Assembly: GCA_048267245.1 (NCBI GenBank)
Contig: JBLWXV010000001.1
Span: 195,487 to 259,486, forward strand
DNA: 64,000 bases
DNA from: Bacteriovoracaceae bacterium
Lineage (GTDB): Bacteria > Bdellovibrionota > Bacteriovoracia > Bacteriovoracales > Bacteriovoracaceae
Direction: 5' to 3'
Positions 4,020-29,627 of this stretch are shown here, one piece after another. A program made the position numbers and the translations under genes. Position 1 is the first letter of the stretch. Every line of letters starts with the position of its first letter. The notes beneath the pieces are model-generated. The model was not told the DNA's origin. It did not search any database and saw only the letters and a program-made list of their open reading frames with translations.

Positions 4020-4022
<3 letters not shown>

Positions 4023-4409: not shown

Positions 4410-4425
4410 AATAACGGACATTCCG

Positions 4426-5801: not shown

Positions 5802-6426
5802 TTAATTGAGCTGGCCTATTATACTTTGATAGTAGGCCATGAAACGCTCTTCCCATTGAAACCGGTTCATCCTTGGCCATAAGAGCTCTGAGATTTATCT
5901 TTAATTCTTTGCGCACCTGATCTTCATCATCTCGCTTTATCTCATAGAGCTTAAACAAGTTTTCAAGTGGTTCCCCGCGCCCTCTTGCAATTGATGTCAT
6001 TAGGTTGGCTCGATTGGCGGCGACAAATTTAATCGTTTCACGCTCTAGAAAGCTTGTCTTCTTAGCGCTTGATGTTAGTTCAATCAGGTAGCTATTTGGG
6101 CTATACTCAATCATCTTTCCCGTGAGGGCATCGGTCCCCCAAGATAGCCAACTCGTAAGATTGAAGATAGCTACCTTATTGAGCGTCTTGTGTATCCTCA
6201 CTTCCTTTGTCTCATGGCCATCTTTCATCACTTTCAAAGTAATATTTGCGAAAGTATCTCTTTTAAAAGATTTTTTAAAAGGAGTTACGCCGAGCAATTC
6301 ACTTCCCTTATAGACCTTCGCGCCTGCAGGTATTGAGGTGAAACTTATCTCATCTGCACTTGGGCTAAAGAGCGTGCCACACGATGATAAAATTATTGCC
6401 GACAAAAGAACTAACACGTAGTTCAT
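5776..6426 (-). CDS. PEGA-domain lipoprotein
   Basis: The lipobox is MNYVLVLLSAIILSSC. The PEGA-like motif is SIPAGAKVYKGSELLGVTPFK. Confidence 0.72.
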   Translation of the reverse strand: MNYVLVLLSAIILSSCGTLFSPSADEISFTSIPAGAKVYKGSELLGVTPFKKSFKRDTFANITLKVMKDGHETKEVRIHKTLNKVAIFNLTSWLSWGTDALTGKMIEYSPNSYLIELTSSAKKTSFLERETIKFVAANRANLMTSIARGRGEPLENLFKLYEIKRDDEDQVRKELKINLRALMAKDEPVSMGRAFHGLLSKYNRPAQLISDLGSSR

Positions 6427-6492
6427 ATAGACTCCTTAATTCTCATTTGAACTATAGCTTAGTTGGACTCAACTAGATTTTCTAGAGCGAAT

Positions 6493-10757: not shown

Positions 10758-10888
10758 TATCTTTTACAGTATAAGTTAGTTCAGTGACGGGAACAAACCT
10801 CCATTGTAGCGCCAATTTCATCGAAGGTTTCAAATAATCATGGATCATTAGATAATGAGCATATGATCACTCACAAAAGCAGGACGAT

Positions 10889-13028: not shown

Positions 13029-13046
13029 GTATTCACGGATTTGAAA

Positions 13047-13245
13047 TTCAAAAAGGCCACTGGGCTTTTTGGACGACGCTTGTTTTGAATCAACGGGATT
13101 TTGCGGAAAAGTTTTTCTTTGAAGAAGATACAAGTGGCGGAGACGGAGTTCAAAAAGGCCACTGGGCTTTTTGGACGACGCTTGTTTTGAATCAATGGGA
13201 TTTCGCGGGAAAGGCTTTCTTTGAAGAAGATACAAGTGGCGGAGA
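13047..13245. repeat. tandem direct duplication (2 x 97 bp, period 102 bp) ending in the 3' end of tRNA-Ser
   Basis: Copies at 13047-13143 and 13149-13245 differ at about 5 positions by hand alignment. Both end in TGGCGGAGA, which in copy 2 is the real 3' end of tRNA-Ser(GCT). Each copy contains the hairpin AAAAAGGCCACTGGGCTTTTT. Confidence 0.9.
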
Positions 13246-13325
13246 AGGCGAGATTTGAACTCGCGGTACCCAGAGGGTACGACACCTTAGCAAGGTGCTG
13301 GATTCGGCCACTCTCCCACTTCTCC
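13237..13325 (-). tRNA. tRNA-Ser (anticodon GCT), class II, CCA encoded
   Basis: The reverse complement is GGAGAAGTGGGAGAGTGGCCGAATCCAGCACCTTGCTAAGGTGTCGTACCCTCTGGGTACCGCGAGTTCAAATCTCGCCTTCTCCGCCA. It has a long variable arm and the anticodon loop TTGCTAA. Confidence 0.93.
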
Positions 13326-13341
13326 GCTGACCTTGTAAAAA

Positions 13342-13429
13342 TGGCGGAGGACACAGGATTCGAACCTGCGGACCCGTTAAGGTCAACGGTTTTCAAAACC
13401 GCCGCTTTCGACCGCTCAGCCAATCCTCC
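13342..13429 (-). tRNA. tRNA-Ser (anticodon TGA), class II, CCA encoded
   Basis: The reverse complement is GGAGGATTGGCTGAGCGGTCGAAAGCGGCGGTTTTGAAAACCGTTGACCTTAACGGGTCCGCAGGTTCGAATCCTGTGTCCTCCGCCA. The anticodon loop is TTTGAAA. Confidence 0.93.
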
Positions 13430-13439
13430 GCGAAGGTCT

Positions 13440-13468
13440 AATATAGGGCCTTGTGCGAGAAAAGACAA
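13440..13468 (-). promoter_or_regulatory. putative sigma70-type promoter for the tRNA-Ser pair
   Basis: The minus strand reads TTGTCT, then 17 nt, then TATATT, ending about 10 nt upstream of the tRNA-Ser(TGA) 5' end. Confidence 0.5.
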
Positions 13469-13483
13469 TTGAGAAATTTCGTT

Positions 13484-16400: not shown

Positions 16401-16759
16401 TCTTCTTGAATATCTTCTTTTGCCTTCTTAGCCTCTAACGCAGCTTCTTGCTCTTCTTGCGCTTTTTTTTCACTCGCTTTCTTTTGAGCTGCTCCTTTGG
16501 CAAGGCTCATGCGTGCAACAGTATGAGAAGTCTGGGTGACTCCCGAAGATTTTTTTTCGCTTTCTTCTTTTGGTGATTCTGTTAGAACTGAAATTAATTC
16601 TTTATGGGCCGATAGGGGGGCCCATTCTCCAATGGGAAATAACTGGGCCTGCTCCTGACCTTTGATGTGACCCTTGTCAAAGAGCTCCCGAACTTGGATT
16701 TTAGTAAAAGGGCCTACGACCCTCCCGCCGGTGAGCCTTAGCCTATATTTGGCTGCCAT
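13484..16759 (-). CDS. large TPR-repeat membrane-anchored protein with GYF-like N-terminal domain
   Basis: 1091 aa. The N-terminus is YRLRLTGGRVVGPFTKIQVRELFDKGHIKGQEQAQLFPIGEWAPL (GYF_2-like). A long acidic/Lys-rich low-complexity linker follows, then one TM helix (ILVIILLLIAYLMM), then about 700 aa of TPR-like repeats. Confidence 0.8.
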   Translation of the reverse strand: MAAKYRLRLTGGRVVGPFTKIQVRELFDKGHIKGQEQAQLFPIGEWAPLSAHKELISVLTESPKEESEKKSSGVTQTSHTVARMSLAKGAAQKKASEKKAQEEQEAALEAKKAKEDIQEEAKNKKPIEGEGTKSNFVEFVFNKEDESAVDYKALEEKYQTEKSEEANEGPDSTPSSQANETSADQDDEEGVEKTVILQRPMARQQNVDKTVIVNPKALAAIKEEEEPEEDYEKTKKEILPEEIPVDTSEATQMVVLSEVMRKIKTEAKDTQKELEQKLEQEESKLTQLTATTVLENDEDEEEEEKPRKGTRPIILVIILLLIAYLMMDEEKKAPELKPINVVVEFPIGDVKPNALKAEQDYNEALATYSYKYVDKLKSIKLLKDSLANKFDGSDALPWLLRVYAEVMENAQDPLKTRQVIFKLTQIARSKVLTDPNAALGTALFYQKNGKVHTARTTLENYLRLGNPTLDILAAYLNILIDAGDLIQALKVYERIEPIEKKPLKAYLAMARYLELEEKFDEAKKTLEEAGKFYGESVELLLLYSDYLVREGDTAKFKTVLENVQKLQADQSPTYTAMYLERMGILSAYIKEIDTAVKFFNTALELRESDELRSKLAALQRGGGNAAEKLILESRVIQLMKKAEQELRLSNWELAFTHAINAVDILESYIPSQLLLADIQLRRGYFESALGTLSKLKSNYPLNANVSFKFLEGLIKARKFVPAQDQVILIGQTSLKDLPEYNSYLGQYYYEIGNVNLAIKNYTMALKRDPLRDDDLFRLGKIYLLYKKYENSKQMITRAIELDPLNVDYVATYAKILYELDSADAAIGYLRNMLEKFPDNPRLLGDIATYYYRNGQLKQFETYKEKVAKLSAKDESFYRFLVNSAKLEGKIDKVIEYSKDLLKVAPGDMEARMLLGTYLLSNNRFADAYATFLDVRERLTSFPKVNYFLAKVMVKQKDYKKGLEFANKEVELNPALEFGHYIVGEVKRLQGDIAGAETSLEKAISINGRYVEALMSLGWIKRNQRLYEPARELYLRALKVELDNPEVHKELCLIYNEIGQNGLAIESCQTYLKLLPGAPDTRQIETLIQRMK

Positions 16760-16816
16760 CTTCTCATAATATCGCAGTCTGAATTTTTACCCAAAGGGCA
16801 AATGCTACCTTAATAA

Positions 16817-17866
16817 TTATGCGAGTTTAGGTCTTCTCAGGTCTTTGTTGAGACCTACCAAAATCATGAAGGTTGAAACGAGAATTGCCACAATGAAAAT
16901 AATCGGGGCAATTTTCCAGATCAATTCAGTATGTTTTTGCTCATATACATTAATCTGCGCGAGAACCAGTGAACCCAAGCTTCCGGGGAGGAATAGGAAT
17001 TGGTAGAGAAAACCAATGATAGCAATACGAGAGCCAATTTCGGCTCGGTTTCTATCTTCTTGGAGAATGAGTGACAAAATAAGCTGACCAATAATCTCAA
17101 CAAAGAAGAGCGTCAAGAGATAGACCTTCACATCCACCTGCTCCCCCGACCACATGGGAAGTAAGACGAGAGATCTCATAAGAGCACAAAGAAGTGAGAT
17201 CAATTCGCGCTTTTCACTTCGCACCAGGCTCCAAGCTGTGAAGAGGAGGGCCATACCGACATAAGACCAGAGTCCAAAGTTGAGCATGGTTGGGTTCACA
17301 TAACTCGTAGCTTGTCCCATTACTTCTGACAATTTAAGGGGAAGTAGGAAGGCAACGATACTCAACTTAAATAGGGTCTTACCTTCGATCAGGCTTCCCT
17401 TTTTATACTCATGCTCAATAAGAAAGAGATGATGCCACAAGATCATCATCATCATCGGACAGGCGAGACTTATAAGTGACGAGCGCTCTATCAAATTAAA
17501 CTGAGATGTTATTAAAGTTGCCCCCAACCCAAGAGGTAGAACCATATCGAGTGATTTTCTATTGGGACCTGGGCGAGCAATAGTGAGTGCGAGGTAATAG
17601 CTTAAAAGCTCAAGCTCCAAAGGCATCTCAGCTAGGGCCCAAATTGAAATAAAGGTAACCATAAATGGCACCTCTTCTCTCTTGCGTGTCAAAAGACATA
17701 GGCTGGCCACCAACAGATAGGGGATGAGCATATAGTTCTTTGAGCAATAAAAGATCAAGGGCGCAATTGCTACAAGCATCGCGAAAACCTCTAGCTTCTT
17801 CACACGCATAAGAACGTAGGAGCAAAAAGAAAAAATGACTACTAGGAGTGATGTTTCATAAGCCAT
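16817..17866 (-). CDS. orphan polytopic membrane protein 7 of the nuoN-downstream array
   Basis: 349 aa, mostly hydrophobic helices, with no recognisable motif. It overlaps the preceding gene by 25 nt. Confidence 0.6.
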   Translation of the reverse strand: MAYETSLLVVIFSFCSYVLMRVKKLEVFAMLVAIAPLIFYCSKNYMLIPYLLVASLCLLTRKREEVPFMVTFISIWALAEMPLELELLSYYLALTIARPGPNRKSLDMVLPLGLGATLITSQFNLIERSSLISLACPMMMMILWHHLFLIEHEYKKGSLIEGKTLFKLSIVAFLLPLKLSEVMGQATSYVNPTMLNFGLWSYVGMALLFTAWSLVRSEKRELISLLCALMRSLVLLPMWSGEQVDVKVYLLTLFFVEIIGQLILSLILQEDRNRAEIGSRIAIIGFLYQFLFLPGSLGSLVLAQINVYEQKHTELIWKIAPIIFIVAILVSTFMILVGLNKDLRRPKLA

Positions 17867-18684
17867 GCTTGAACTTTACTCCTGCTAAAAAATTTAACTG
17901 TTAAAATTGAAAAGTAGAGAAGGGCCATCAAGGGATAGAGCTTTCCAATGCTCACAATGCCGATGACCGGAAGTAATTCCTCTTTTGACTTTAATGAAAA
18001 TGCACTTAGAACGACGAGGGCAAATGCTGTAATAAAGAGATAAACGCTTCCCTTAACTAAAGATATGAAAATTACTAGTGCACAAAGAGCTCTCAGTAAA
18101 CTTATACGCAACATACTTAAAAGTGAAATAACTGTAATCACCCATACGCTGGTATCTCCAAAGTTTTTAAAACTAATTATATTGCTCATATAAATAGCAA
18201 ATATTCCAAGAAACACCGTTTTATCACGTCCTGAGAAGAGAGCAACAAGAGCGATTGCAATTGAGATGGTGTATCTCAAGACTATTGGTGCCGAGCCAAG
18301 AGCGAGTTCAACTCCAAGGCTGTAATTAAGTGACTCAAGAACGCAACAAAGTAATAGTAAACCAATAGACCATAATGCCTCAGTGCGCTCAAAGAGAAAC
18401 TTGGAAAAAATAATCCCCGCCAGTGATAGGTTTATTCCAATAACGGGAGTGAGCATGGCAAAGAGATATGAAAGAGCGAGGACTACTTTGTCATTTCGAT
18501 CTTTAAGTACATGAGAACTCATCAAGACAAGAATCGAAATAGCAACTTCAGCATCGACTGACAGTGGTCGAGATTTAAATAGCCCAAACCAGCTGACTTT
18601 TAGGCAAATATAAACAACGACAGCAATAATCACAGCGATATTATCAAACAACCAATTTTTAAGGTTTTGTGGAGTCAACTTCAT
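17842..18684 (-). CDS. orphan polytopic membrane protein 6
   Basis: 280 aa and hydrophobic throughout. An ATGA start/stop overlap joins it to the preceding gene. The local string INLSLAGIIFSKFLF weakly recalls the LSLAGIPP.GF.SKF motif of antiporter-like Nuo subunits. Confidence 0.6.
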   Translation of the reverse strand: MKLTPQNLKNWLFDNIAVIIAVVVYICLKVSWFGLFKSRPLSVDAEVAISILVLMSSHVLKDRNDKVVLALSYLFAMLTPVIGINLSLAGIIFSKFLFERTEALWSIGLLLLCCVLESLNYSLGVELALGSAPIVLRYTISIAIALVALFSGRDKTVFLGIFAIYMSNIISFKNFGDTSVWVITVISLLSMLRISLLRALCALVIFISLVKGSVYLFITAFALVVLSAFSLKSKEELLPVIGIVSIGKLYPLMALLYFSILTVKFFSRSKVQAWLMKHHS

Positions 18685-19943
18685 ACATGCATCTCCTTTA
18701 AAAGAAGGACAATTGAAGTGATGATGACCAGAAAGAGAAATATTAAATAAGGAAATGATGTTTGACGACTAAGCCAACTTACATCGACTAATTCTTTCCA
18801 ATGTTTCTGTGACTCTGCTCTTTGTGCAGGTTCGATATTACTTTCTAGCCGTGCGGCCATTTTTCCATTTTTAAGAAACGAAGCGAGCAGTTCGCTGTGA
18901 ATGGCAATTAGCATTGGATTCTTTAGCCACAGCCTCATTGCTCCATAAATCATCCCAACAAAGCTAAGCACGATAGCACAAACTACGAATGATGTGGCCA
19001 GTGCCAAATCTCTATAATTTAGAACAATTAATATATTTCCAATAACCGATATACCAAAGAGGCTTGAGAACCCAAGAAATAGATCGCGCTCGTTTAATTG
19101 ACCAGAGTCTACCTGCTCATCAGATATAACTAGACCCTCGGCCAGTATTGAAAAAAGAGCAAATGTTAAAGACCAGGTAATTGCCGCCAGAGGCAAGTAA
19201 AAGCCGAGTCTCATCTCATATACATTTCCCATCAGAAGAATTGGTCCAAAAGTGAGGGCGAAGATTGATGCGAAGAAGACTTTAGGGCTTTGATAGAACA
19301 GACTTCTAAGTTTTAGAGGTGAAGGAAGTAACTCAGTCCTAGAAACCATACACTCTTGAAAGAGCAACAGCGATAAAACAACGGCCATTAATGTCAAAGA
19401 GAGGGGGCTACTCTCACTTAAGAGAAGCATCATTGAGAGACAGCTGCTCATAACTTTAATAGATGACTTAAGATTATGTGCCCAAAAAAGTAGCCTCAGA
19501 GAATAGATAATTGCAACATATTCTCCAACATACTGAATGCCTGGACCACTGATAGTGCCCTTGGAAAAATAAAGAAAACCCAGGGAAAGCGAGAAGTTTA
19601 AATGACCTTCTCTATCTGGTTCAGAGAGATATTCCTCGAGAACACTGATAACAAGAGCAAAGTATGCAAAAGGTCTTAATTGCGGTGGCAGCAGCATCGT
19701 AGCGCCCAAAAGAAGCAAGGAAAGAGGCTTAATGTTTTTTGACAACACTATTGCTGCAATAATTAATATTATCGAGTGAGAGATAATTTCGATAAATTCC
19801 GCCGCAAAAGGAAGTCCCAAAAGAGCAAGAGCTCTATAATCTTTTGTTCGCACTGACAAAGCGAGAAAGAGTGCGGCCACAATAAGGTAACCTAGGATTA
19901 CAGCCTTATCCATCTGTGCCAGACTACTCATCATCATGACCAA
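18681..19943 (-). CDS. orphan polytopic membrane protein 5
   Basis: 420 aa with many hydrophobic helices. It overlaps the upstream gene by 8-20 nt, depending on which of the MVMMM Met codons is used. Confidence 0.6.
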   Translation of the reverse strand: MVMMMSSLAQMDKAVILGYLIVAALFLALSVRTKDYRALALLGLPFAAEFIEIISHSIILIIAAIVLSKNIKPLSLLLLGATMLLPPQLRPFAYFALVISVLEEYLSEPDREGHLNFSLSLGFLYFSKGTISGPGIQYVGEYVAIIYSLRLLFWAHNLKSSIKVMSSCLSMMLLLSESSPLSLTLMAVVLSLLLFQECMVSRTELLPSPLKLRSLFYQSPKVFFASIFALTFGPILLMGNVYEMRLGFYLPLAAITWSLTFALFSILAEGLVISDEQVDSGQLNERDLFLGFSSLFGISVIGNILIVLNYRDLALATSFVVCAIVLSFVGMIYGAMRLWLKNPMLIAIHSELLASFLKNGKMAARLESNIEPAQRAESQKHWKELVDVSWLSRQTSFPYLIFLFLVIITSIVLLLKEMHV

Positions 19944-20169
19944 AGTCCTTAAAATGAGTCACAACGTAAGCGATTAACCAGATTAGGTAGATGAAAATGA
20001 CTTCGTATCCACTGACACTTGAATCTGGTCGATAAAAATAAGTTCTCATTAAAAGAAATAGAGATGAGAGGCAAAGAGCTATCGCCATGACTCTATTTTG
20101 AAGATCATTTGACTTATACCACTTCACTAATGCTATTAAAGCAGCTCCAAGCAAGATGAATGTATTCAT
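19924..20169 (-). CDS. orphan small membrane protein 4
   Basis: 81 aa with about 2-3 hydrophobic helices. An ATGA overlap joins it to the preceding gene. Confidence 0.5.
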   Translation of the reverse strand: MNTFILLGAALIALVKWYKSNDLQNRVMAIALCLSSLFLLMRTYFYRPDSSVSGYEVIFIYLIWLIAYVVTHFKDFGHDDE

Positions 20170-20582
20170 TTGCGCCTCAGCTTTGGAAGAATTCCGAGAA
20201 TTGCCCCTAGGAAAACGACACTAATGAGCCACAAGTCTTCTGTAGTTGATTTTTGATTGGTCTGGCTCACAACTGCTCTAAGCGTCGAGCTCGAATTTAA
20301 TACGTAGAATCCAGAAACGATAAGAATCAATGAAGTATAGAGGATAAAGTCGGTTGAGCGTGCACTTGGCAAGCGAGTTAAATCCTTCTTCTTAGTTCCA
20401 AGAACAATAATGGCCGGAACGATAAAAAAAGCAATTAAGTAGACGAGGTTAAGCTCAATTCCCATCTGGCTTGGTACTAAGCATAGTAACTGTAGCATCA
20501 AGAGCAAAACTAGGTTTTGACCAGGCTTTTCTATGGCAATAAACATTGAACCAATGATTGTTAGCAAGGCAAGTTCAATCAA
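20166..20582 (-). CDS. orphan membrane protein 3
   Basis: The track ORF is 20166..20660. I prefer the TTG at 20582-20580, which forms a TTGA start/stop overlap with the upstream gene stop (20581-20579). This gives about 138 aa of hydrophobic helices. Confidence 0.5.
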   Translation of the reverse strand: MIELALLTIIGSMFIAIEKPGQNLVLLLMLQLLCLVPSQMGIELNLVYLIAFFIVPAIIVLGTKKKDLTRLPSARSTDFILYTSLILIVSGFYVLNSSSTLRAVVSQTNQKSTTEDLWLISVVFLGAILGILPKLRRK

Positions 20583-21382
20583 AATCGCCCCCCAGTCACA
20601 ACGAAAATTCCCATTGATACGATGAATGCAACAATTGAAGTTGGTACAAATCTCGTCCAAATTGCCTTTTCAATTATCTCTTCACTCAGTGGAAAGAATA
20701 CCTTTGAAAATAATGACATCACTTTTTTTGCCACAAATAGATAGATGATTAAGTAGGCACCTGCACCTATCGTTTGAAGAATATCATTATAAATTGAGTC
20801 CATATTGAATACCCCGATCGCAGGTATTCCCCCAAGAAAGTAGAATAGTCCAAGTAGAAGGGCCGTATTAAGATGAAATTCAGAGCTAAGCTGGTATGGA
20901 AGTAGCCCATTCATATGCTTTTTGAGCTGGATATTTTTATACTTAATAAAACAAAGCCAATAAAAAAGAATGGCATTTACTGGATCATAGACTAGCCCAA
21001 CGCGAGGTATGCCTAGACTAGAGAGATTGGCTTGTCTCGATGTAATTTCGGCCAAGTTAAAGGTGCCGTAGCGAACAAGGGCCGACATTAAGGTTAGGGG
21101 AAGGACAATATCCATAACCATATTTACTCGGCTTCTCTCTAGTTTTTGCGACGTCATGGTTTGAAGATAGAAAATTACCAAGAGAATAAGCAGTGTACCC
21201 GTTTCTCTGTAATTTCCACTCACAACATCAATATAGCCAAAGGGAAGCGTATTTAAACTTAGGTAGAAAAGAAGAAAACTAAGAGTAAGAAGTAGATGTC
21301 CACTTCTATGAACTCCCTTTGACCAAAAAAAGGAGATCCAACCAGTGGTAAGGGCCTTTAATACAAATGCGACAGCACTCAT
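20579..21382 (-). CDS. orphan polytopic membrane protein 2
   Basis: 267 aa and hydrophobic. It starts 1 nt after the stop of the preceding ORF. Confidence 0.6.
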   Translation of the reverse strand: MSAVAFVLKALTTGWISFFWSKGVHRSGHLLLTLSFLLFYLSLNTLPFGYIDVVSGNYRETGTLLILLVIFYLQTMTSQKLERSRVNMVMDIVLPLTLMSALVRYGTFNLAEITSRQANLSSLGIPRVGLVYDPVNAILFYWLCFIKYKNIQLKKHMNGLLPYQLSSEFHLNTALLLGLFYFLGGIPAIGVFNMDSIYNDILQTIGAGAYLIIYLFVAKKVMSLFSKVFFPLSEEIIEKAIWTRFVPTSIVAFIVSMGIFVVTGGRF

Positions 21383-21383
21383 C

Positions 21384-21734
21384 TTATCTGCCCCCTTTAC
21401 TTGTTTCGTAAATATGGGAGATCAATAATATTGCTGTAGGAGAGAGCAACAAGAGCACAGGAAGTGTCTGCTCCATAGTTGGTGTTCTCTCGTTTCTAAA
21501 TAGAAGAAAGAGAACAAAAACTAAAAGTATAAGAAAGATGACCATCGAGATCAGCAGTTGCATCGGGACGCTTCTTCCATAGGAGTGGAGGAAAGCCGTC
21601 ATCTTCACATTAGATTTGAATCTTCTAGATCTATAAAGATAGAGCAAAGACGAAAGGACACCTACAAGAAGATAGGTGCCCCATTCGATGAAAACTATAT
21701 TATTGAATAAAGAGAGCTGCTCCACTGGCGGCAA
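21384..21734 (-). CDS. orphan membrane protein 1, overlapping the 3' end of nuoN
   Basis: 116 aa with about 3 hydrophobic helices. The only ATG/GTG starts (21734 and 21725) lie inside the last 35 nt of nuoN. Confidence 0.5.
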   Translation of the reverse strand: MPPVEQLSLFNNIVFIEWGTYLLVGVLSSLLYLYRSRRFKSNVKMTAFLHSYGRSVPMQLLISMVIFLILLVFVLFLLFRNERTPTMEQTLPVLLLLSPTAILLISHIYETSKGGR

Positions 21735-23166
21735 CCATGAGCTTTTGCCAGAATATACCTAGCACTATTACAGGGACAGTCATCACTAGAATTAATGACT
21801 GATTTCTAAAACCAAATCCTTCGATTTTCTCCTCTGATTCACTTTGCTTAAAGACCATGAGTCTCACAATTTTCAGGTAGTAGTAAGCAGAGATCACTGA
21901 GTTTAGAACAGCAATAATTGCTAGAGCGTAGTACTTTTGCTCCACAAGTGCGTAGAGAATGTTGAATTTAGCAACAAATCCAGCAAGTGGTGGAACACCA
22001 GTTAGTGAGAACATAACAACGATCATCACGATGGCCATCATTGGATAGCGAGTAGAGAGACCGTTAAATCTCTCAAAGTGATCATTGCCGTACTTATCTT
22101 GAACAAATGAAACCACATAGAAAGCAACAAGTGTCATAAAGAGGTAAGTAACGCCGTAGAAGACGATGGCGCGTACACCGATGGCATTGAGCACAACCAC
22201 ACCCATCATCATCACACCAGCGTGAGAGATCGATGAGTAAGCGAGCATTCTTTTAACTGAGCGCTGTCCTAGTGCTGATACGTTTCCAACAGTCATCGTA
22301 AGAGCACCGGCAATACTAAGAAGGCCAATCCAACTATCTTGAAGAACGCCCTCGGCACCAAATAGCACCATCGAGACGCGAACAAGGGCTGCCATACCGG
22401 CCATTTTTGGAACAATACTAAAGAATGTTGTAACTGGAAGCGGACTTCCTTCATACACATCTGGTGACCACATGTGAAAAGGTACACAAGCAATCTTATA
22501 ACCTAGACCTACAAAGAAGAGGACAAAGGCAGGGATCAAAATGGCAACTTGAGTTGTTCCAACTGTCGCAAGCACGCTCACCATATCAGAAAAATTGATT
22601 GTCCCAAGAATTCCAAAGAGATGACTCATTCCAAAGAGCATGAAAGCTGAAGAGACACCGCCGTAAAGAACATACTTAAGACCGGCTTCACTTGAGCGAT
22701 CGTCATTCTTCTTTAAGCTCGCAAGAACATAAGAGAGAATCGAAAGTGTTTCAATGCCGATGTAGAGCATAAGTAGGTTATTGGCCGAAGCTAGGATCAT
22801 GCCGCCGATGAGTACGCCGACAGCAATGATTGCGAATTCGCCCTTCACACTACCTTGGATATCATCTGAAACACTTGCGAGGTAAACCGCACCAGCAGTT
22901 CCGAGCACCATAATGATCTTAATCATCGCAGAGAATGGATCAATGACCATACTTCTTGTGAAGATCAGCTCAGGAGCGTGAGAAAAAGACGAAACCAGAG
23001 CACAAAAGCTAAAGATCAAACCGATAAAAGCAGTTGTGTAGAGGAGAGGTTTTTTCTTCTCGCCCTCATCGTAGGTTACTTCCACCAGAATGAGGCCCAT
23101 CATGGTCATGCACATGATGAGCTCCGGGATGTATCTACCAATATTCGCTAAATAATTCAGTCCCAT
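21700..23166 (-). CDS. nuoN: NADH-quinone oxidoreductase subunit N (ND2-like antiporter subunit)
   Basis: 488 aa. The conserved stretches are FHMWSPDVYEGSPLPVT, KRMLAYSSISHAG and FSLTGVPPLAGFVAKF. Confidence 0.9.
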   Translation of the reverse strand: MGLNYLANIGRYIPELIMCMTMMGLILVEVTYDEGEKKKPLLYTTAFIGLIFSFCALVSSFSHAPELIFTRSMVIDPFSAMIKIIMVLGTAGAVYLASVSDDIQGSVKGEFAIIAVGVLIGGMILASANNLLMLYIGIETLSILSYVLASLKKNDDRSSEAGLKYVLYGGVSSAFMLFGMSHLFGILGTINFSDMVSVLATVGTTQVAILIPAFVLFFVGLGYKIACVPFHMWSPDVYEGSPLPVTTFFSIVPKMAGMAALVRVSMVLFGAEGVLQDSWIGLLSIAGALTMTVGNVSALGQRSVKRMLAYSSISHAGVMMMGVVVLNAIGVRAIVFYGVTYLFMTLVAFYVVSFVQDKYGNDHFERFNGLSTRYPMMAIVMIVVMFSLTGVPPLAGFVAKFNILYALVEQKYYALAIIAVLNSVISAYYYLKIVRLMVFKQSESEEKIEGFGFRNQSLILVMTVPVIVLGIFWQKLMVAASGAALFIQ

Positions 23167-23184
23167 TGTTCTACCTATTTATTC

Positions 23185-24723
23185 TTATTGATACTGGGCA
23201 AGCATTGAAACGAGGTTACCAACAGATGCCTTCATCATATTAAGTAGTGGAGAGGGGTAAATCCCAAAGAGGATTACCGCAATACACAGAGGAATCATGT
23301 AAGCAATTTCTCTCGCGTTCATATCCGTGTACGACTTACATTCTTCGTTAACATCTCCAAAGAACATTCTCTTGAACATCCAAAGAAGGTAAGCGGCACC
23401 AAGAAGAAGACCAATGAGTGCAAGAACAGTAATTGTTGTAAATCGCTCGTAGATCCCAAGGAAAATAAGAGCTTCAGAAATGAAGCCTGAAAGTCCTGGA
23501 AGACCCATTGAAGCGAACATCGCGATAATGAAGACGATTGAGTAGCGTGGAAGCTGAGTATAGAGACCACCGAAACCGCGAGTACCGTCTGGACGAACGA
23601 TCCATCTGTGGTGTGAACGCTCGTAGAGGATACCAATCATAAGGAACATCATCGCTGTTGAAGTTCCGTGGTTGAACATCTGAAGAACAGCACCGTTCAT
23701 ACCTTGAACTGTCATCGAAGCAAGACCAAGCATTACAAAGCCCATGTGAGATACTGAAGAGTAAGCCACAAGTCGCTTCACGTCTGTTTGGGCCATAGCG
23801 CAGAAGGCACCGTAGATCACGTTGATGAGACCCAACCATGCAATACAATCAGAGAAATAAACTGAAGCTTGCGGGAAGATTGGGAAAGCAATTCTTAGAA
23901 ATCCGTAAGTACCCATTTTAAGAAGAACGCCGGCGAGGATTACAGACACGGCAGTTGGTGCTTGAACGTGCGCGTGTGGAAGCCAAGTGTGGAATGGGAA
24001 CACCGGTACTTTAATGGCAAAACCAATAAAGAGGAAAATAAAGAAGAACTTATCAAATGGAAGACTCATTCCAAAGATCTCAAGGTTTGGAACCTGTGAG
24101 AAGTTCATCTTGGCCAGAGCGAGAAGATCAAATGACTCAGCCCCTTGGTTAGTTGCGTAGTAGAGTGCAACCATCCCCACAAGCATGAGGACTGAACCAA
24201 AGAATGTGTAGAGGAAGAATTTAACCGCTGCGTATTCTTTGTTCTCGCCACCCCAAATTCCCACGAGGAAGAACATTGGAATAAGCATAACTTCCCAGAA
24301 GACGTAGAAGAGGAAGAAGTCTAGCGAGAGAAACACACCAAATACCGAAGTTTGGAGCATGAGAAGAAGTGCGAAGTAAGCCTTCACTTTCTTTTCAATT
24401 GTCCATGAACTCAGGATACAGATGAAGAAGATCAGCGCTGTAAGAAGAATCATTGGAAGAGAGATACCATCTACACCAAGTGTGTAGTTGATATTGAAGG
24501 ACTCAATCCAAGGAACCTTAATATTAAAGGTTGGCTGCATACCGGCAACTGTCTGGTCAAACTTCATATAAAGGATGGCCGACAACACGAGCGTAATAGT
24601 CGTGGTTGCTAGCGAAGCCCATCTAATGAGGTTAGCTTTCGCATTTGGTAAGAGCGCCACGACCAGAAATCCGATCATAGGCATCCATAGAATCCAGTTT
24701 AACAAATTTGATGAGCCGTGCAC
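23185..24723 (-). CDS. nuoM: NADH-quinone oxidoreductase subunit M (ND4-like)
   Basis: 512 aa. The conserved stretches are FPFHTWLPHAHVQAPTAVSVILAGVLLKMG and KRLVAYSSVSHMGF. Confidence 0.92.
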   Translation of the reverse strand: MHGSSNLLNWILWMPMIGFLVVALLPNAKANLIRWASLATTTITLVLSAILYMKFDQTVAGMQPTFNIKVPWIESFNINYTLGVDGISLPMILLTALIFFICILSSWTIEKKVKAYFALLLMLQTSVFGVFLSLDFFLFYVFWEVMLIPMFFLVGIWGGENKEYAAVKFFLYTFFGSVLMLVGMVALYYATNQGAESFDLLALAKMNFSQVPNLEIFGMSLPFDKFFFIFLFIGFAIKVPVFPFHTWLPHAHVQAPTAVSVILAGVLLKMGTYGFLRIAFPIFPQASVYFSDCIAWLGLINVIYGAFCAMAQTDVKRLVAYSSVSHMGFVMLGLASMTVQGMNGAVLQMFNHGTSTAMMFLMIGILYERSHHRWIVRPDGTRGFGGLYTQLPRYSIVFIIAMFASMGLPGLSGFISEALIFLGIYERFTTITVLALIGLLLGAAYLLWMFKRMFFGDVNEECKSYTDMNAREIAYMIPLCIAVILFGIYPSPLLNMMKASVGNLVSMLAQYQ

Positions 24724-24779
24724 CGGTCAACTCCTTCTCAAATAGACTTAACTTTTGAAACAATAACCAATATTTCTTC

Positions 24780-26957
24780 TTATATACTTAATTTCCAAAC
24801 ATACCCTACGAGCACCACAATGAGCACGAAGAAGTAGAATTGAACCTTTCCACTCTGAATCGTGCGCAGGATGACGTTAAAGAGGCGAATTGAAGCCCCA
24901 GTTCCGTCAACAGCAACCGTATCTACCCACAAGCGATCAAACCAGTTGGCAAATTTAAAGAGAACTCTGTTCACTTTTTCCCAACCATCGACGAAGTAGC
25001 GATCATAAACTCCCAAGTCAAACCAAGCGCTGGCGCGGTTTGAAGGAAGAAGAATCTTTCCAATCAGACCTTTAATATAAAGATCATCAAAGTAGTAGCG
25101 ATTTTGAAGTGCCTTATACCAGCGGTGGAATGTTGAAACCCACCAACCTGGATTGAGGGCACCACTGATATACATCAAGAAGGCAATGAAAACACCAAGG
25201 GCCGCAATGATAATTGAAACCACAGCGCCAATATGGTGAACGTGGTGAACAAAGTGGGCTTCCTCTTCATTCATGCCATGATCTGGATCGTACTTAGAGC
25301 GCTCCAATGTAGTCTTTGGTGCGGAGTCATTGAATCCAAAATCAGATCTTGTGTACTCGCCAAATTTTTCAAGGTGCACTGGCTTTTCAATAAGAGTGGC
25401 AAACCACTCTTTCTTCTCTCCAAATACTGTCACAATTTTTTGACCAGTAAGTGATCCAGAGAACCAGATACCAAGCGTAAATACCGCGAGGATAAGAAGT
25501 GGAACGTTTTGATTCCAGCTTAGGTGTTCTTTATGAGCGTGATCGTAGAGTTCCTTGTCGCGTGGTTCACCAAAGAACGTAAGGAACATCATTCTAAACA
25601 TGTAGAATGCTGTGAGGAAAGCGCCGGCAAAACCAAGAATTGTTGGAATCCACCAGAATCCACCTTTACCCATGGCCAGCACGAGAGCATCGCCAAGAAT
25701 TCTATCTTTAGAAACGAATCCAGAGAAGAATGGGATACCAGCAATGGCGAGCGTACAGCACAGCATCGCAAGATATGTGAATGGAAGCTTGTGACGAAGA
25801 CCACCCATTCTCGGCATTTCCTGCACGTGAGAGTGAGTGTGGTGATCGTGAAGTGAGTGAATCACTGAGCCAGCAGCAAGGAAGAGACACGCCTTAAAGA
25901 CAGCGTGAGTAATAAGGTGCATGAAGCTCGCGTTATACGCGCCAACACCAATACCAAGAACCATGTAACCAAGCTGAGAGATTGTAGAATAAGCAAGAAC
26001 CGCTTTAATGTCTGTTTGAACGAGAGCGATCGTCGCAGCACCAAATGCCGTGATCCCACCGATAACCGCAATCATCGGAAGAATGCCGGCAGCTTCCATA
26101 AGTGGGAAACATCTTAGCGAGAGATAAACTCCGGCAGCAACCATGGTCGCAGCGTGAATGAGGGCCGAACATGGAGTTGGTCCTTGCATCGCATCTGGTA
26201 GCCATACTTGAAGTGGGAACTGAGCGGATTTACCAATCGTACCCATAAAGATTGAGATGGCAGCAACTGTAATGAGTGGGAAGCCAATAGCGTAGAGCCC
26301 ATCAAATGACCCAGCTCCAAGTGCTTTATAAATATCAACAAAAGTTACGTTACCAACGACAGACCAGATTGCGACAATACCAAGGAGGAAGAAAACGTCT
26401 CCCACACGTGTTGTCATGAAGGCCTTAATAGAGGCGTTACCCGCAGCTTCCTTCTCATAGTAGAAGCCAATGAGCGAGTATGAGCAAAAGCCCATGAGTT
26501 CCCAGAAGATAAACACTGAAAGGAGGTTATCTGAGAGCACAAGGCCTAGCATCGCTGAAGTAAAGAGCGACATATACACAAAGAAGCGACCGTAGCGGGC
26601 ATCGTCGTGCATGTAGAAAGTAGAGAAGATGTGAATAAGTGTGGCCACACCAGTCACCATGAGAAGCATTACAGCTGTCATGTTGTCGATGTAGATACCC
26701 ATATCTACAGCAAAATTTTGTCCACCGGCCGTTAGGTCAAACCATGTGAATGTTTTGTGAATGTGGTAATCGGCGGCGTACTTACCAAAGACGAAATCAC
26801 CAAAGATTCTAGCTGCCCACAAGAATGAGGCAAAAATAGAAGCACAGCTAATAGTCACTGCGAGATTGGTGAACTTTTTCACGATAAACGAGTTGATTAC
26901 AAACGCGAAAAACGGAAAAAGAACAATCGGGGCTACGCTAAGAATTGTATAATCCAT
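24780..26957 (-). CDS. nuoL: NADH-quinone oxidoreductase subunit L (ND5-like)
   Basis: 725 aa. The conserved stretches are KSAQFPLQVWLPDAMQGPTPCSALIHAATMVAAGVY and KAVLAYSTISQLGYM. It has a long C-terminal extension consistent with the lateral helix. Confidence 0.92.
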   Translation of the reverse strand: MDYTILSVAPIVLFPFFAFVINSFIVKKFTNLAVTISCASIFASFLWAARIFGDFVFGKYAADYHIHKTFTWFDLTAGGQNFAVDMGIYIDNMTAVMLLMVTGVATLIHIFSTFYMHDDARYGRFFVYMSLFTSAMLGLVLSDNLLSVFIFWELMGFCSYSLIGFYYEKEAAGNASIKAFMTTRVGDVFFLLGIVAIWSVVGNVTFVDIYKALGAGSFDGLYAIGFPLITVAAISIFMGTIGKSAQFPLQVWLPDAMQGPTPCSALIHAATMVAAGVYLSLRCFPLMEAAGILPMIAVIGGITAFGAATIALVQTDIKAVLAYSTISQLGYMVLGIGVGAYNASFMHLITHAVFKACLFLAAGSVIHSLHDHHTHSHVQEMPRMGGLRHKLPFTYLAMLCCTLAIAGIPFFSGFVSKDRILGDALVLAMGKGGFWWIPTILGFAGAFLTAFYMFRMMFLTFFGEPRDKELYDHAHKEHLSWNQNVPLLILAVFTLGIWFSGSLTGQKIVTVFGEKKEWFATLIEKPVHLEKFGEYTRSDFGFNDSAPKTTLERSKYDPDHGMNEEEAHFVHHVHHIGAVVSIIIAALGVFIAFLMYISGALNPGWWVSTFHRWYKALQNRYYFDDLYIKGLIGKILLPSNRASAWFDLGVYDRYFVDGWEKVNRVLFKFANWFDRLWVDTVAVDGTGASIRLFNVILRTIQSGKVQFYFFVLIVVLVGYVWKLSI

Positions 26958-26970
26958 CGTCTATACTTCC

Positions 26971-27276
26971 TTACCTCTGAAGCTGAGTAGCATCATCAAT
27001 GTGGATACTATCTCTAATTTGGAAAAATCTAATCGCAATCGCGAGTCCTACTGCAGCTTCTGCGGCAGCAATAATGATAATAAAGAGGGTCATCAAGTGA
27101 CCGTCTAAATTATTATTCACGTAGCGAGTGTAGGTCACAAAGTTAAGTCCGGCGGCATTCATAATGAGCTCAATACCAAGGAGCATGGCGATGATATTCT
27201 TGCGAACCATCATCACTGCAATACCTGCAACGAACAGAACAAAAGAAATAAAGAGATAAGTAAAAATCGTTGTCAT
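26971..27276 (-). CDS. nuoK: NADH-quinone oxidoreductase subunit K (ND4L-like)
   Basis: 101 aa with three helices. The conserved stretches are NIIAMLLGIELIMNAAGLNFV and AAAEAAVGLAI. Confidence 0.9.
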   Translation of the reverse strand: MTTIFTYLFISFVLFVAGIAVMMVRKNIIAMLLGIELIMNAAGLNFVTYTRYVNNNLDGHLMTLFIIIIAAAEAAVGLAIAIRFFQIRDSIHIDDATQLQR

Positions 27277-27281
27277 GTCTC

Positions 27282-27812
27282 TTAATCCTTACGCGGTCTT
27301 GAAATAACGGCCGCACCAACAAGAGCTCCAAGAAGTAGGATAGAGCTGATTTCGAAGGCAAGGACGTGGTCAGTAATGAGTAGAGTTCCGATCTTTTCAA
27401 CTGTTGCTGTGAACGCAGGAACTTCACCTTGAGTGTAGCCCTTGAGGTATCCAGCAATAATTTTAAGAAGAACGAAGGAAATGACTAGGGCAGTGAAGAT
27501 ACCAAAGACATAAGTCTTTGTGCTTCCCATCCCTGGAACTTTTTCAATTCCAAAGCGATTGGCCTTATTTTCAGTTCCGCCTGTGAGCATGATCGCAAAG
27601 AGCATAAGGATCACAACACCACCAGCATAAACCACTAGCTGAGTTGCTGCTAAGAAGTCAGCTCCTAGAGTAGCGTATAGACCAGCAACACCAAAGAGAC
27701 ATCCCAAGAGATACACACAGGCATGCATGAGATGCTTAGAAAAAACGACTCCTACAGCACCACATATAGTGATGGCAGCAGAGAGAAAAAATAGCGTGTT
27801 ATCAAATAGCAC
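27282..27812 (-). CDS. nuoJ: NADH-quinone oxidoreductase subunit J (ND6-like)
   Basis: 176 aa. LMHACVYLLGCLFGVAGLYATLGADFLAATQLVVYAGGVVILMLFAIML matches the NuoJ pattern. Confidence 0.88.
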   Translation of the reverse strand: MLFDNTLFFLSAAITICGAVGVVFSKHLMHACVYLLGCLFGVAGLYATLGADFLAATQLVVYAGGVVILMLFAIMLTGGTENKANRFGIEKVPGMGSTKTYVFGIFTALVISFVLLKIIAGYLKGYTQGEVPAFTATVEKIGTLLITDHVLAFEISSILLLGALVGAAVISRPRKD

Positions 27813-27829
27813 CTTGAGTCTCCTCTATC

Positions 27830-29026
27830 TTAGTGTCCGCCGCCGCTACCGGCAGCAAGACTTCCAATGATTTGCCAAATTGATTCTCCGTGGAAGAGAT
27901 ACATCCAAAATGCACAACCAACGAGGTTAAAGAGTGCAATTGGAGTAAGGTACTTCCAACATAGTGTCATGAGGTGGTCGACGCGAAGACGTGGAAGCGT
28001 CCAGCGAACCCAAATCACGATATAGTAGAGAACCAATGTCTTAGAAACGAATGATCCAATTTCTAGTACGTTGCCAATTTTGCGACTAAGTTCTGGATCA
28101 AGTCCAAGCTTTTCAGTAAAGAAGACACCTGAGCCTAATTCAAATGGCACTTGGTATCCACCTAGAAAGAGTGCAACGGCCACACCGCAAACAACGAATA
28201 CTTCCATGTACTCAGCAAGAGCAAAGAAAGCAAAGCGCATACCGGTAAATTCTGTGTGGTAACCAGAAACAAGTTCTGATTCAGCTTCTGGAAGGTCAAA
28301 GGGAGCGCGGTTGGTTTCAGCAAGCACGCCAACAAAGAAGACGAAGAAGCCAATAAAGGTAAACGGATTGTGAAGGATATACCACTGGTGCGGAAGTCCG
28401 CCCTGGGCCCCAACGATAGTCCCAAACGAGAGACCACCGGCCATAAGTACCATGGCAAGAACAGAGAGGGTTACAGGAACTTCGTAAGAAACGATTTGAG
28501 CTGCACCTCTCATCCCACCAAGCATCGACCACTTTGAGTTAGATGAGTAACCGCCAAGAAAGATACCTACACCTACGAGTGATGAAACACCGATAAGGTA
28601 GAACACACCAACGTTGAGGTCAGTGAGTGTAAAGCCAGAAGAAAAGGGAATAACGGCGAAAGTAGCAAGAACACCAACGAGGCACATAAGAGGTGCAATC
28701 GTATAAAGGAACTTGTCCACGTGAGCTGGAACGATGTCTTCTTTCATCAACATCTTCACACCATCGGCAAGAAATTGAAGAAGACCAAATGGACCAACGC
28801 GGTTAGGACCCTGTCTCATTTGAAGGTCGGCAGAAATCTTACGTTCAGCGTAGGTTCCAAGACCGCCCACAGTAGCAAGTGCACCAAAGACAACAGCACA
28901 TCCAATAAAGAAAACGAGGAAGGCCATCAACCCTGAGGCATCAAAACCAAGAATGCCACTAACTGCGGCTACTGCTTGTTGATAAATTGTAAATTGTGAA
29001 ACGTATGAAACTATTGTTTCGTTCAT
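27830..29026 (-). CDS. nuoH: NADH-quinone oxidoreductase subunit H (ND1-like)
   Basis: 398 aa. The conserved stretches are ERKISADLQMRQGPNRVGPFGLLQFLADGVKM and APFDLPEAESELVSGYHTEFTGMRFAFFALAEY. Confidence 0.93.
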   Translation of the reverse strand: MNETIVSYVSQFTIYQQAVAAVSGILGFDASGLMAFLVFFIGCAVVFGALATVGGLGTYAERKISADLQMRQGPNRVGPFGLLQFLADGVKMLMKEDIVPAHVDKFLYTIAPLMCLVGVLATFAVIPFSSGFTLTDLNVGVFYLIGVSSLVGVGIFLGGYSSNSKWSMLGGMRGAAQIVSYEVPVTLSVLAMVLMAGGLSFGTIVGAQGGLPHQWYILHNPFTFIGFFVFFVGVLAETNRAPFDLPEAESELVSGYHTEFTGMRFAFFALAEYMEVFVVCGVAVALFLGGYQVPFELGSGVFFTEKLGLDPELSRKIGNVLEIGSFVSKTLVLYYIVIWVRWTLPRLRVDHLMTLCWKYLTPIALFNLVGCAFWMYLFHGESIWQIIGSLAAGSGGGH

Positions 29027-29463
29027 GCCGCATCCTTCTTGTCATTCGCCCCATAGCCCTTGTTGTCCACGTGGTACGACTTAACCCAATCAAGGTCACC
29101 CTTCTTCCAACAATAAACCACACCCAAAAGTAGGATCATCATAAAGACGAGAAGTGAACCAAGTACAACTCCACCGGCACCGATGTCGTTAAACTTTTTA
29201 AAGATCGCTGCTACCGGGAACATCAAAGCGCCTTCCACATCAAAGATGATGAATACGAGGGCTACGACGTAAAAGCGTACGTGAAAATTTGACCACGCTT
29301 GGCCAATGGGATCTTCACCACATTCATAAGGCTGCTCTTTGAGCTTGTTAGGATTGTGGGGACGAATTAATTTACCCATTAATAGGGCACCAGCGAATAC
29401 AATTACCCCTAGGCCCATAAGAATGAGCACGGGCATGTATACGTCTAAACTATGCGACGACAT
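29023..29463 (-). CDS. nuoA: NADH-quinone oxidoreductase subunit A (ND3-like)
   Basis: YECGEDPIGQAWSNFHVRFYVVALVFIIFDVEGALMFP is present. I prefer the ATG at 29463 (MSSHSL...), preceded by GGAG, over the TTG at 29481 in the track. Its stop overlaps the nuoH start by 4 nt. Confidence 0.88.
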   Translation of the reverse strand: MSSHSLDVYMPVLILMGLGVIVFAGALLMGKLIRPHNPNKLKEQPYECGEDPIGQAWSNFHVRFYVVALVFIIFDVEGALMFPVAAIFKKFNDIGAGGVVLGSLLVFMMILLLGVVYCWKKGDLDWVKSYHVDNKGYGANDKKDAA

Positions 29464-29627
29464 GCATGTCTCCGGTTGCAAAGCAAGGTTGAAAGCTCTA
29501 AAAGACTACACGATAACTAACATATTGGAAACATTTTGGCTCGGCTTTTTCAAGGGTAGGGAATTGAATGGACGAGCGAAATCTACTCGCGGCATCATTA
29601 GAAGAGTTTATTTAATTGCGGTGTGAC

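Follow-up and report, generated by a model that had tools for sequence, protein, structure and literature searches.

What are the seven genes that follow nuoN at this locus? The window analysed here, a 64-kb stretch of DNA from a Bacteriovoracaceae bacterium of the predatory Bdellovibrionota, carries on its minus strand a canonical, highly conserved set of complex I membrane subunit genes, nuoAHJKLMN (21700..29481), and 3' of nuoN seven packed hydrophobic ORFs, here o1–o7. A sequence-only reading had described linked orphan membrane-protein genes completing a 14-gene, all-membrane, same-strand array, and both the ORF list and the sequence agree with this. It had also proposed that they encode novel accessory or replacement subunits of a complex I-like membrane module. 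Comparison with relatives bears out the link to the complex I membrane module and indicates another origin: we consider it likely that o1–o7 are the remains of a paralogous second set, nuoA2-H2-J2-K2-L2-M2-N2, lying behind the conserved nuoAHJKLMN of Bdellovibrionota. They are probably a degenerate, non-catalytic paralogous membrane arm and probably not a new protein family.

The fourteen-gene array and its flanks

The first set comprises nuoA (29023-29481), nuoH (27830-29026), nuoJ (27282-27812), nuoK (26971-27276), nuoL (24780-26957, 725 aa), nuoM (23185-24723) and nuoN (21700-23166, 488 aa), all on the minus strand, with nuoA and nuoN matched by Pfam and NCBIfam. Its orthologues in the sister genome L001 carry recorded Pfam families, and the two sets are 93-98% identical. 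On the same strand, o1 (21384-21734, 116 aa) opens with TTG and overlaps nuoN by 35 nt (translation might also start from a GTG at 21725); o2 (20579-21382, 267 aa) follows after a 1-nt gap, o3 (20166-20582, 138 aa; 164 aa as the longest mechanical ORF) after a TTGA overlap and o4 (19924-20169, 81 aa) after an ATGA overlap. The remaining genes are o5 (18681-19943, 420 aa, or 418 aa if counted from the first ATG), o6 (17842-18684, 280 aa), joined by a second ATGA overlap, and o7 (16817-17866, 349 aa), which overlaps o6 by 25 nt. All seven products are strongly hydrophobic (GRAVY 0.60-1.10). The block had been called AT-rich and is mildly so (36-43% G+C, against 40-46% in nuoA-N), but equally low values occur elsewhere in the window. 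None of o1–o7 has a match at curated thresholds in Pfam or NCBIfam, or any in PADLOC, and searches across billions of proteins recovered their own small clade alone. Peripheral-arm genes are absent from the operon and from the rest of the 64-kb window.

After a 57-nt gap, o7 is followed by a TPR gene (13484-16759, minus strand, 1091 aa) whose product matches Pfam TPR families and has one TM helix (residues 307-331) and TPR repeats at its C-terminus. The suggestion that this gene belongs to the module holds only in so far as it is a conserved downstream neighbour: in Bacteriovoracaceae loci it lies 3' of the block or, where the block is missing, directly after nuoN, so its linkage is independent of the seven genes.

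Second nuo sets in related loci

The comparison covered 79 non-redundant related Bacteriovoracaceae loci, 22 of which were too short to score, leaving 57 that were informative. In 44 of the 79, the interval from nuoN to the TPR gene holds seven hydrophobic ORFs on the same strand, neither more nor fewer; two more loci carry seven, one has eight and 10 have no block. Throughout, neighbouring genes of the block overlap or lie just a few bases apart, and by size they rank K < A < J < H, L being the largest, in 50 of 53 loci as well as in the window. The sizes themselves are graded, from 119/349/169/97/658/494/462 aa down to the 116/267/138/81/420/280/349 aa of the window. Full-size second sets are found in some Bacteriovoracaceae and Bdellovibrionaceae-like genomes; Pfam recognises all seven genes as Nuo in locus L009, and profile searches pair each position of the full-size sets with the cognate first-set subunit of the window. 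Both the quinone-site loop and the Lys and Glu residues of the proton channels are retained in these sets. Most Bacteriovoracaceae have seven shortened genes that have lost those residues and whose similarity has faded beyond recognition.

Between these states there are intermediates. Outside the window's clade, matches of reduced H2 proteins range from 2e-25 down to none, those of reduced N2 proteins of 427-451 aa from 3e-29 to 9e-6, and two reduced M2 proteins match at about 1e-7, while L008 and L056 hold recognisable and unrecognisable second-set genes within single genomes. The catalytic residues are gone in the intermediates as well as in the window; the less-decayed relatives have already lost TM5 Glu, TM7 Lys and TM12 Lys or Glu. 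As still-alignable relatives lack the quinone-loop and proton-channel residues, the earlier proposal of working replacement subunits is unlikely to hold. On a crude NJ tree of first-set NuoM and NuoN, loci with a full-size, a reduced or no second set are intermingled, which implies repeated decay and loss. The window's lineage would represent an advanced stage of this decay, and the series among relatives, from intact through unrecognisable to deleted copies, is a natural record of how a multi-subunit membrane module decays.

Partial second nuo operons occur elsewhere, for example in Streptomyces, where extra membrane-subunit copies beside a complete nuo operon stay recognisable Nuo proteins; here, by contrast, a whole seven-gene set has eroded past detection by curated models with its ORFs still open. 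For Bdellovibrionota, a nuoAHJKLMN cluster at one shared chromosomal site in all members and a second cluster, ~37.5-41.5% identical to the first, in Peredibacter, Bdellovibrio and Bacteriovorax have been described (PMC13147790). This fits the two paralogous sets observed here, although the excerpted text of that study gives no account of a tandem second AHJKLMN decaying into unannotated hypotheticals or of its repeated loss (PMC13147790).

Proposed correspondence of o1–o7 to Nuo subunits

The seven-gene order and size rank of o1–o7 are those of complex I NuoA/H/J/K/L/M/N (ND3/1/6/4L/5/4/2), but their products fall 20-45% short of the first-set subunits in length. The clearest case is o2, which, judged by its alignments, is a NuoH2 relic that has lost its N-terminal portion and its quinone-site loop. 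It matches a full-size H2 at E = 2.4e-5 (phmmer), and the same H2 matches NuoH at 5e-74; hhalign gives a probability of 83-88%, and a profile from which the window's clade was left out finds o2 at E = 9e-6, with NuoH the top match in 4/4 clade members. The alignment shows that o2 lacks the AETNRxPFDLxEAESEL loop.

The other small genes have links that are weak, and iterated profiles are prone to drift. With ~3, ~5 and 3 predicted TM helices, o1, o3 and o4 have the helix numbers expected of small complex I subunits, and we infer that they are relics of NuoA2, NuoJ2 and NuoK2 at positions 1, 3 and 4. The iterated clade profile of o1 gathered position-1 proteins only in rounds 1-5 and reached NuoA in round 6 (E = 0.0017 for the first match, against a 384-member set); compared directly with the NuoA profile, o1 gave no significant match, and it lacks the YECG and FDVE motifs. 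For o3 the assignment follows position and size: its clade profile at first matched other clades solely at position 3 (L094 at 8e-4, then 8/8), the iterated profile later drifted to position 4, and a direct comparison with the NuoJ profile was not significant. A weak match joins o4 to the NuoK profile (E 2.6e-4 to 0.015 across the clade): of the four clade members, two have NuoK as their top match and two have it second, just below NuoM. In the collinear alignment, both membrane glutamates are gone (E to A, and E to I or L). Faint sub-threshold matches of o4 to Wzy-type models of Pfam and NCBIfam were also seen.

No sequence method ties o5–o7 to NuoL/M/N or to same-position proteins of other clades, and their assignment to NuoL2, NuoM2 and NuoN2 would follow chiefly from positions 5, 6 and 7. 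In o5, the largest of the seven and without any signal to NuoL in profile searches or hhalign, size and C-terminal architecture also point to NuoL2: a 45-aa polar stretch (353-397) precedes a single C-terminal TM helix, and such a NuoL-like stretch and anchor typically marks position 5 (median 44 aa) and is missing at positions 6 and 7. Position is the basis for o6, which has no signal to NuoM even with a five-member profile, and for o7, which has none to NuoN in profile searches and whose matches among 1.84 billion representatives were confined to its own clade. AlphaFold2 models of o5 (pLDDT 48) and o7 (pLDDT 44.5, 14 helices) are of low confidence, and Foldseek searches with them were uninformative. 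Two strings had been read as hints of antiporter motifs. The FLFLPGS motif of o7 (FLFLPGSLG in the window), conserved 58 residues before the C-terminus, may descend from the TM12 motif of antiporter subunits; INLSLAGIIFSKF in o6 is not kept even in the nearest outgroup, and its resemblance is therefore probably coincidental.

Selection, expression and rival explanations

The seven ORFs stay open across four or five diverged relatives; four complete loci of the clade, and the partial locus L144, have them intact. Codon-position identity runs 2 > 1 > 3 in each of o1–o7 and so shows real genes still under purifying selection, which would mainly keep hydrophobic helices and a few motifs. Values of dN are 0.14-0.71 with dS saturated; o1-o4 and o7 are 64-80% identical between relatives despite this saturation, o5 and o6 fall to ~40% and about 40-46% between sister genomes, and the first nuo set evolves 5-30 times more slowly than the seven.

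Their expression may differ from that of nuoN. A terminator-like GC-rich hairpin (21655..21682, minus strand; 11 pairs, T-rich tail) begins 17 nt past the nuoN stop codon, within the 5' end of o1, and ranked first, with the longest stem, in a scan for such sites. It is kept in 4/4 clade genomes (dG about -20 to -24 kcal/mol), and analogous post-nuoN hairpins occur in 26/43 reduced-set loci compared with 0/15 full-size-set loci (Fisher p = 3e-5), against a background frequency of ~1% of coding windows. Simple translational coupling to nuoN, as first suggested, is therefore an incomplete account even though the overlap is real, and the predicted hairpin argues against simple co-expression. It would probably attenuate o1–o7 in reduced-set lineages.

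One explanation for these data is that the block is functionless DNA en route to deletion, its ORFs kept by inertia, polar effects or avoidance of toxic fragments. Whole-block loss in 10/57 informative loci, the hairpin, the missing catalytic residues and the very fast divergence, with o5/o6 identity at ~40% beside 94-98% in the first set, would suit this, but the codon-position pattern in all seven genes, the identity of o1-o4 and o7 at saturated synonymous sites, invariant motif islands in o5 and o7, and seven intact ORFs in at least 44 diverged lineages make it improbable. Another possibility is a working, streamlined ion-translocating or complex I-associated module, which might be a minimal assembly of antiporter type or another membrane arm serving one phase of the predatory cycle. 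The seven genes, their order and tight junctions are kept family-wide, o5 has conserved charged motifs (LEEYL, GEY and LRL) in a hydrophobic context, and in size the proteins come close to mitochondrial ND subunits. However, the NuoH quinone-site loop, both NuoK glutamates, the NuoA acidic motif and the TM5, TM7 and TM12 residues are gone, the rate is high and the block has been lost repeatedly, so we hold this equally doubtful.

Least probable, and very much so, is that o1–o7 are new accessory subunits without Nuo descent or an unrelated system such as a polysaccharide polymerase, flippase or Mrp-type antiporter. The want of curated family matches, the confinement of detectable o5-o7 similarity to their own clade and the faint Wzy-type matches of o4 would allow it; against it, o2 at position 2 is a NuoH homologue, genuine full-size Nuo paralogues fill the same seven slots between the same flanks in relatives, and L008 and L056 hold part-recognisable sets. 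Mrp, Wzy and Wzx matches are absent at any meaningful threshold. Mrp (Mnh/Pha) antiporters, evolutionary kin of the complex I membrane arm, are likewise encoded by seven consecutive membrane-protein genes, but o1–o7 match no MrpA-G family, differ in sizes and order, and have a NuoH-like protein at position 2, a subunit that Mrp lacks.

For a degenerate second nuo set, we propose that the products would be translated and inserted in the membrane, would no longer be able to act as a quinone-coupled proton pump, and probably survive, at low expression, as a relic assembly or scaffold with no catalytic role. That dozens of genera retain all seven ORFs, and that o5 and o7 carry conserved motif islands, could reflect a real derived function and not just relic status.

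Seven hydrophobic genes between nuoN and the TPR gene

A second set of complex I membrane-arm genes, degenerate and probably non-catalytic, is the best explanation for the seven hydrophobic ORFs that follow nuoN, here o1 to o7. These ORFs lie on the minus strand, as does the conserved first set in the order nuoA, H, J, K, L, M, N (nuoA, 29023–29481; nuoN, 21700–23166), in which NuoL is unusually long at 725 amino acids. Their products have 116 (o1, 21384–21734), 267 (o2, 20579–21382), 138 (o3, 20166–20582), 81 (o4, 19924–20169), 420 (o5, 18681–19943), 280 (o6, 17842–18684) and 349 amino acids (o7, 16817–17866), and all seven are strongly hydrophobic (GRAVY 0.6–1.1). The coordinates and the sequence bear out the sequence-only reading, which had described seven ORFs behind nuoN, and the junctions that it proposed from nuoN to o7 (a 35-nt overlap, a 1-nt gap, TTGA, ATGA, a short overlap, ATGA and a 25-nt overlap) are the same in the sequence. 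It had also judged the block to be richer in AT, and the G+C content of the o1–o7 genes is somewhat lower (36–43% vs 40–46% for the nuo genes). Horizontal transfer was considered as the source of this lower G+C content and rejected, because the block is syntenic family-wide and the difference is small.

A gap of 57 nt separates o7 from a gene for a 1091-amino-acid protein that combines one TM helix with TPR repeats (13484–16759, minus strand). Directly downstream, two tRNA genes on the same strand (13240–13325 and 13345–13429) end the minus-strand gene array, and the divergent mfd gene flanks the operon upstream. ORFs for a YcaO-domain protein (9699–10757), a family-5 solute-binding protein (8060–9532) and a histidine-kinase-type ATPase (6493–8082) adjoin one another, all on the minus strand, and a cobalamin riboswitch at 3868–4036 (plus strand) scored 34.2 bits, just over the Rfam gathering score of 31.5. 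Homologues of NuoB, NuoCD and NuoI were not found within the 64-kb window; the first-set NuoH retains its quinone-site loop, which implies a peripheral arm encoded elsewhere. According to a 2026 paper on Peredibacter (PMC13147790), all Bdellovibrionota carry a nuoAHJKLMN cluster at this site, and there is a second nuo cluster about 37.5–41.5% identical to it.

Second nuo sets in related genomes

A NuoN scan of one genome per species together with a metagenome scan gave about 140 loci, and by these the window belongs to the Bacteriovoracaceae (Bdellovibrionota); the metagenome scan gave no relative exceeding 69% NuoN identity. In most loci tblastn placed the TPR gene 5–7 kb downstream of nuoN. 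ORF maps of 79 non-redundant loci answer the question of whether seven genes follow nuoN in relatives: the interval between nuoN and the TPR gene contains exactly seven hydrophobic same-strand ORFs in 44 loci and eight ORFs in one, and two loci with another interval state have seven hydrophobic ORFs as well. The TPR gene directly follows nuoN, with the block absent, in 10 of the 79, and the contig is too short to judge the interval in 22. The tandem arrangement of a first and a second set also occurs in Bdellovibrionaceae-like loci.

The proteins encoded in the interval form a size series, running from 119/349/169/97/658/494/462 amino acids at its largest (for example at locus L009) through intermediates of 116/355/153/103/538/387/448 and 106/319/166/93/510/265/335 to 116/267/138/81/420/280/349 in the window. 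In 50 of 53 loci the sizes rank K < A < J < H, and L is the largest of the seven. At L009 all seven genes were recognised by Pfam, and profile searches led from every position of the full-size second sets to the cognate subunit; as second copies of NuoA, H, J, K, L, M and N these sets are genuine. Their NuoH retains the quinone-site loop, their antiporter-like subunits retain the residues in TM5 (Glu), TM7 (Lys), TM8 and TM12, and the intermediates show a stepwise loss of the quinone-loop and antiporter-subunit residues.

Similarity to the Nuo families also grades away among the reduced sets of clades other than the window's. With lineage profiles, the reduced NuoH counterparts (H2) range from E = 2e-25 down to no match and the reduced N2 proteins (427–451 amino acids) from 3e-29 to 9e-6, two M2 proteins score about 1e-7, and L2 is past recognition already at about 600 amino acids. 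Single genomes are mosaic, as at locus L008, where A2, H2, J2, K2 and N2 are recognisable and the intervening pair of genes, between K2 and N2, is not. In all-against-all sequence networks the positions stay separate, except for the paralogous L, M and N. On a tree of first-set NuoM and NuoN, loci with a full-size, a reduced or no second set are intermingled, which implies repeated decay and loss. The block in the window is positionally equivalent, in the order A-H-J-K-L-M-N, to the recognised Nuo genes of these relatives, and for the block taken together, ancestry as a second set is well supported. At two other loci, L079 (about 10001–14800) and L134 (about 2573–7400), a NuoN only 37% identical to that of the window is followed directly by a TPR-like ORF of 977 amino acids; the L079 NuoH clusters with full-size second-set NuoH in a NuoH tree, and both loci may contain a second-set-type cluster adjoining a TPR gene.

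Assignment of the individual subunits

All seven proteins fell below threshold in Pfam, NCBIfam and PADLOC, in agreement with the earlier statement that none carries a family signature. Membership of an Mrp antiporter, of Wzy/Wzx polysaccharide machinery or of an anti-phage defence system drew noise-level Pfam or NCBIfam matches at most and none from PADLOC. Relatives are few: o5 alone matched nothing but itself among 5.8 billion proteins, an alignment of its clade reached three proteins, and a 32-sequence position-7 alignment reached seven in a large protein search, six of them being four window-clade proteins and two 407-amino-acid proteins, one of which is the position-7 protein of locus L018. 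The o7 clade profile added one relative among 1.84 billion representatives, P0015, on the more distant locus L144, and tblastn with o1–o7 across the related loci gave no homologues beyond the immediate clade.

Second-set ancestry is likewise well supported for o2. It matched a lineage NuoH profile built without the window's clade (E = 9e-6), NuoH was the best lineage-profile match for all four clade members, and phmmer linked o2 to full-size H2 at 2.4e-5. When hhalign was used to compare the window-clade profiles with 136 clade/position profiles and the Nuo families, o2–NuoH was the sole detection (probability 83–88%). Pfam and NCBIfam were silent on NuoH/ND1 (PF00146) at E <= 1. Both the window's NuoH and the full-size H2 proteins keep the TM5-6 quinone-site loop (AETNRxPFDLxExESELVxG); in the other reduced H2 proteins it is degenerate, and o2 and its clade lack it.

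For o1, o3, o4 and o5 the same ancestry is moderately supported. Searches of o1 for NuoA/ND3 (PF00507) gave no Pfam match and a lineage-profile match that was not significant, and the acidic NuoA motifs (YECG..., FDVE) were not found in it; the o1 clade profile gathered position-1 proteins alone through five iterations and then reached NuoA, so that the link is an iterated, position-specific chain only. Lineage-profile scores for o3 and o4 count without window-clade proteins in the profiles. On this basis o3 gave no significant match to NuoJ/ND6 (PF00499), nor a Pfam match, and the initial matches of its clade profile were all position-3 proteins of other reduced clades (8e-4) before the search drifted. 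The o4 protein had no Pfam match to NuoK/ND4L (PF00420) and weak matches to the NuoK lineage profile (E = 2.6e-4 to 0.015); it aligns collinearly with NuoK, with both membrane glutamates of NuoK (TM2 and TM3) replaced.

The antiporter-like subunits NuoL, M and N share a fold of two inverted five-helix repeats with broken TM7 and TM12 helices that carry Lys or Glu. For o5, o6 and o7, nothing matching NuoL/M/N (PF00361) was obtained with Pfam, NCBIfam, lineage profiles or hhalign. By hydropathy only, o5 ends in a 45-amino-acid polar stretch and a 23-amino-acid terminal TM helix, a C-terminal extension of the NuoL type (a long amphipathic segment with an anchor helix) that recalls the lateral helix and anchor of NuoL; across loci, position 5 typically has this extension and positions 6 and 7 lack it. 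Sister genomes share about 40% identity in o5 with invariant islands (LEEYL..P...GH, GEY.A..Y.LRL.FW, LP....L..LFY..P..FF and GPILL), and its C-terminal helix is nearly unchanged between them. Assignment of o6 and o7, and with it their second-set ancestry, is positional only. A plausible series leads from the TM12 motif to the conserved FLFLPGS of o7, which may be a relic of that motif. AlphaFold2 models of o5 (pLDDT 47.8, 3-sequence alignment) and o7 (pLDDT 44.5, from an alignment of the six position-7 search matches) were of low confidence, and the lack of a Foldseek match to the PDB under E 0.8 with such models is not negative evidence on fold.

Selection, transcription and possible function

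The same layout occurs at three more loci, L001 (a metagenome-assembled Bacteriovoracaceae genome), L002 and L143, which with the window form its clade; L144 is partial. Within this clade identities are 93–98% for NuoA–N, 92% for Mfd and 85% for the TPR protein, and about 65–73% for o1, 66% for o2, 71% for o3, 77–80% for o4, 38–42% for o5, 41–46% for o6 and 65–78% for o7. The o1–o7 reading frames are open in all close relatives compared, identity by codon position follows 2 > 1 > 3 in all seven genes (0.50/0.66/0.34 at positions 1, 2 and 3 in o5), and dN is 0.14–0.71 with dS saturated. We infer from these three features that o1–o7 are translated genes under purifying selection, which would be far weaker than that on the first nuo set and, in o5 and o6, would mainly maintain hydrophobic character.

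In the 5′ end of o1, 17 nt past the nuoN stop, there is a terminator-like hairpin (21655–21682, minus strand; GC-rich, 11 bp, T-rich tail), and all four clade genomes conserve it. Under one fixed definition, within 120 nt after nuoN and with a background of 0.4–1.3% of coding windows, such a hairpin was present at 26 of 43 reduced-set vs 0 of 15 full-size-set loci (Fisher p = 3e-5; hairpin at L002, L003, L005-7, L014, L016-18, L021-23, L027-29, L031-32, L035, L037, L041-42, L091, L094, L096, L099 and L112). Its sequence varies between clades and its position is constant. Given this association, attenuated transcription of the second set would accompany its relaxed evolution and may drive it.

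With the quinone-site loop missing from o2, the NuoK glutamates from o4 and the acidic NuoA motifs from o1, the window's second set, judged by these residues, cannot carry out canonical quinone-coupled proton pumping. One proposal is that the eroded set has been repurposed as a non-catalytic, seven-subunit pseudo-membrane arm. By itself, or together with the first set and/or the TPR protein, this arm would continue to assemble and would form a lineage-specific scaffold in the inner membrane of these predatory Bacteriovoracaceae, its dosage tuned by the hairpin; we regard this as unlikely. Reading o1–o7 as a degenerate second set turns seven hypothetical proteins per genome, family-wide, into one interpretable unit, and our literature searches found no account of a decaying tandem nuo copy. 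The loci would provide a rare natural series in which a whole seven-subunit membrane module decays in step with its frames open throughout. It would begin with intact sets, pass through shrinkage with catalytic residues lost, go beyond the reach of curated models and end in deletion. For complex I research, such a series can separate the parts of membrane subunits needed for insertion and assembly from those for catalysis. It also indicates that orphan genes can originate by divergence and not from non-coding DNA, and the coincidence of decay with a newly arisen terminator-like hairpin connects transcriptional insulation with protein erosion. The series also raises the question of a pairing partner for the strongly conserved, peripheral-arm-less nuoAHJKLMN of Bdellovibrionota. 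Identity at third codon positions is 0.61 in nuoN, compared with 0.46 in the TPR gene and 0.34–0.48 in o1–o7, and dS is 0.4–1.2 across the first set (21700–29481) vs saturated in its neighbours (13484–21734); this low synonymous divergence suggests strong codon-level constraint on the first set, or recombination.
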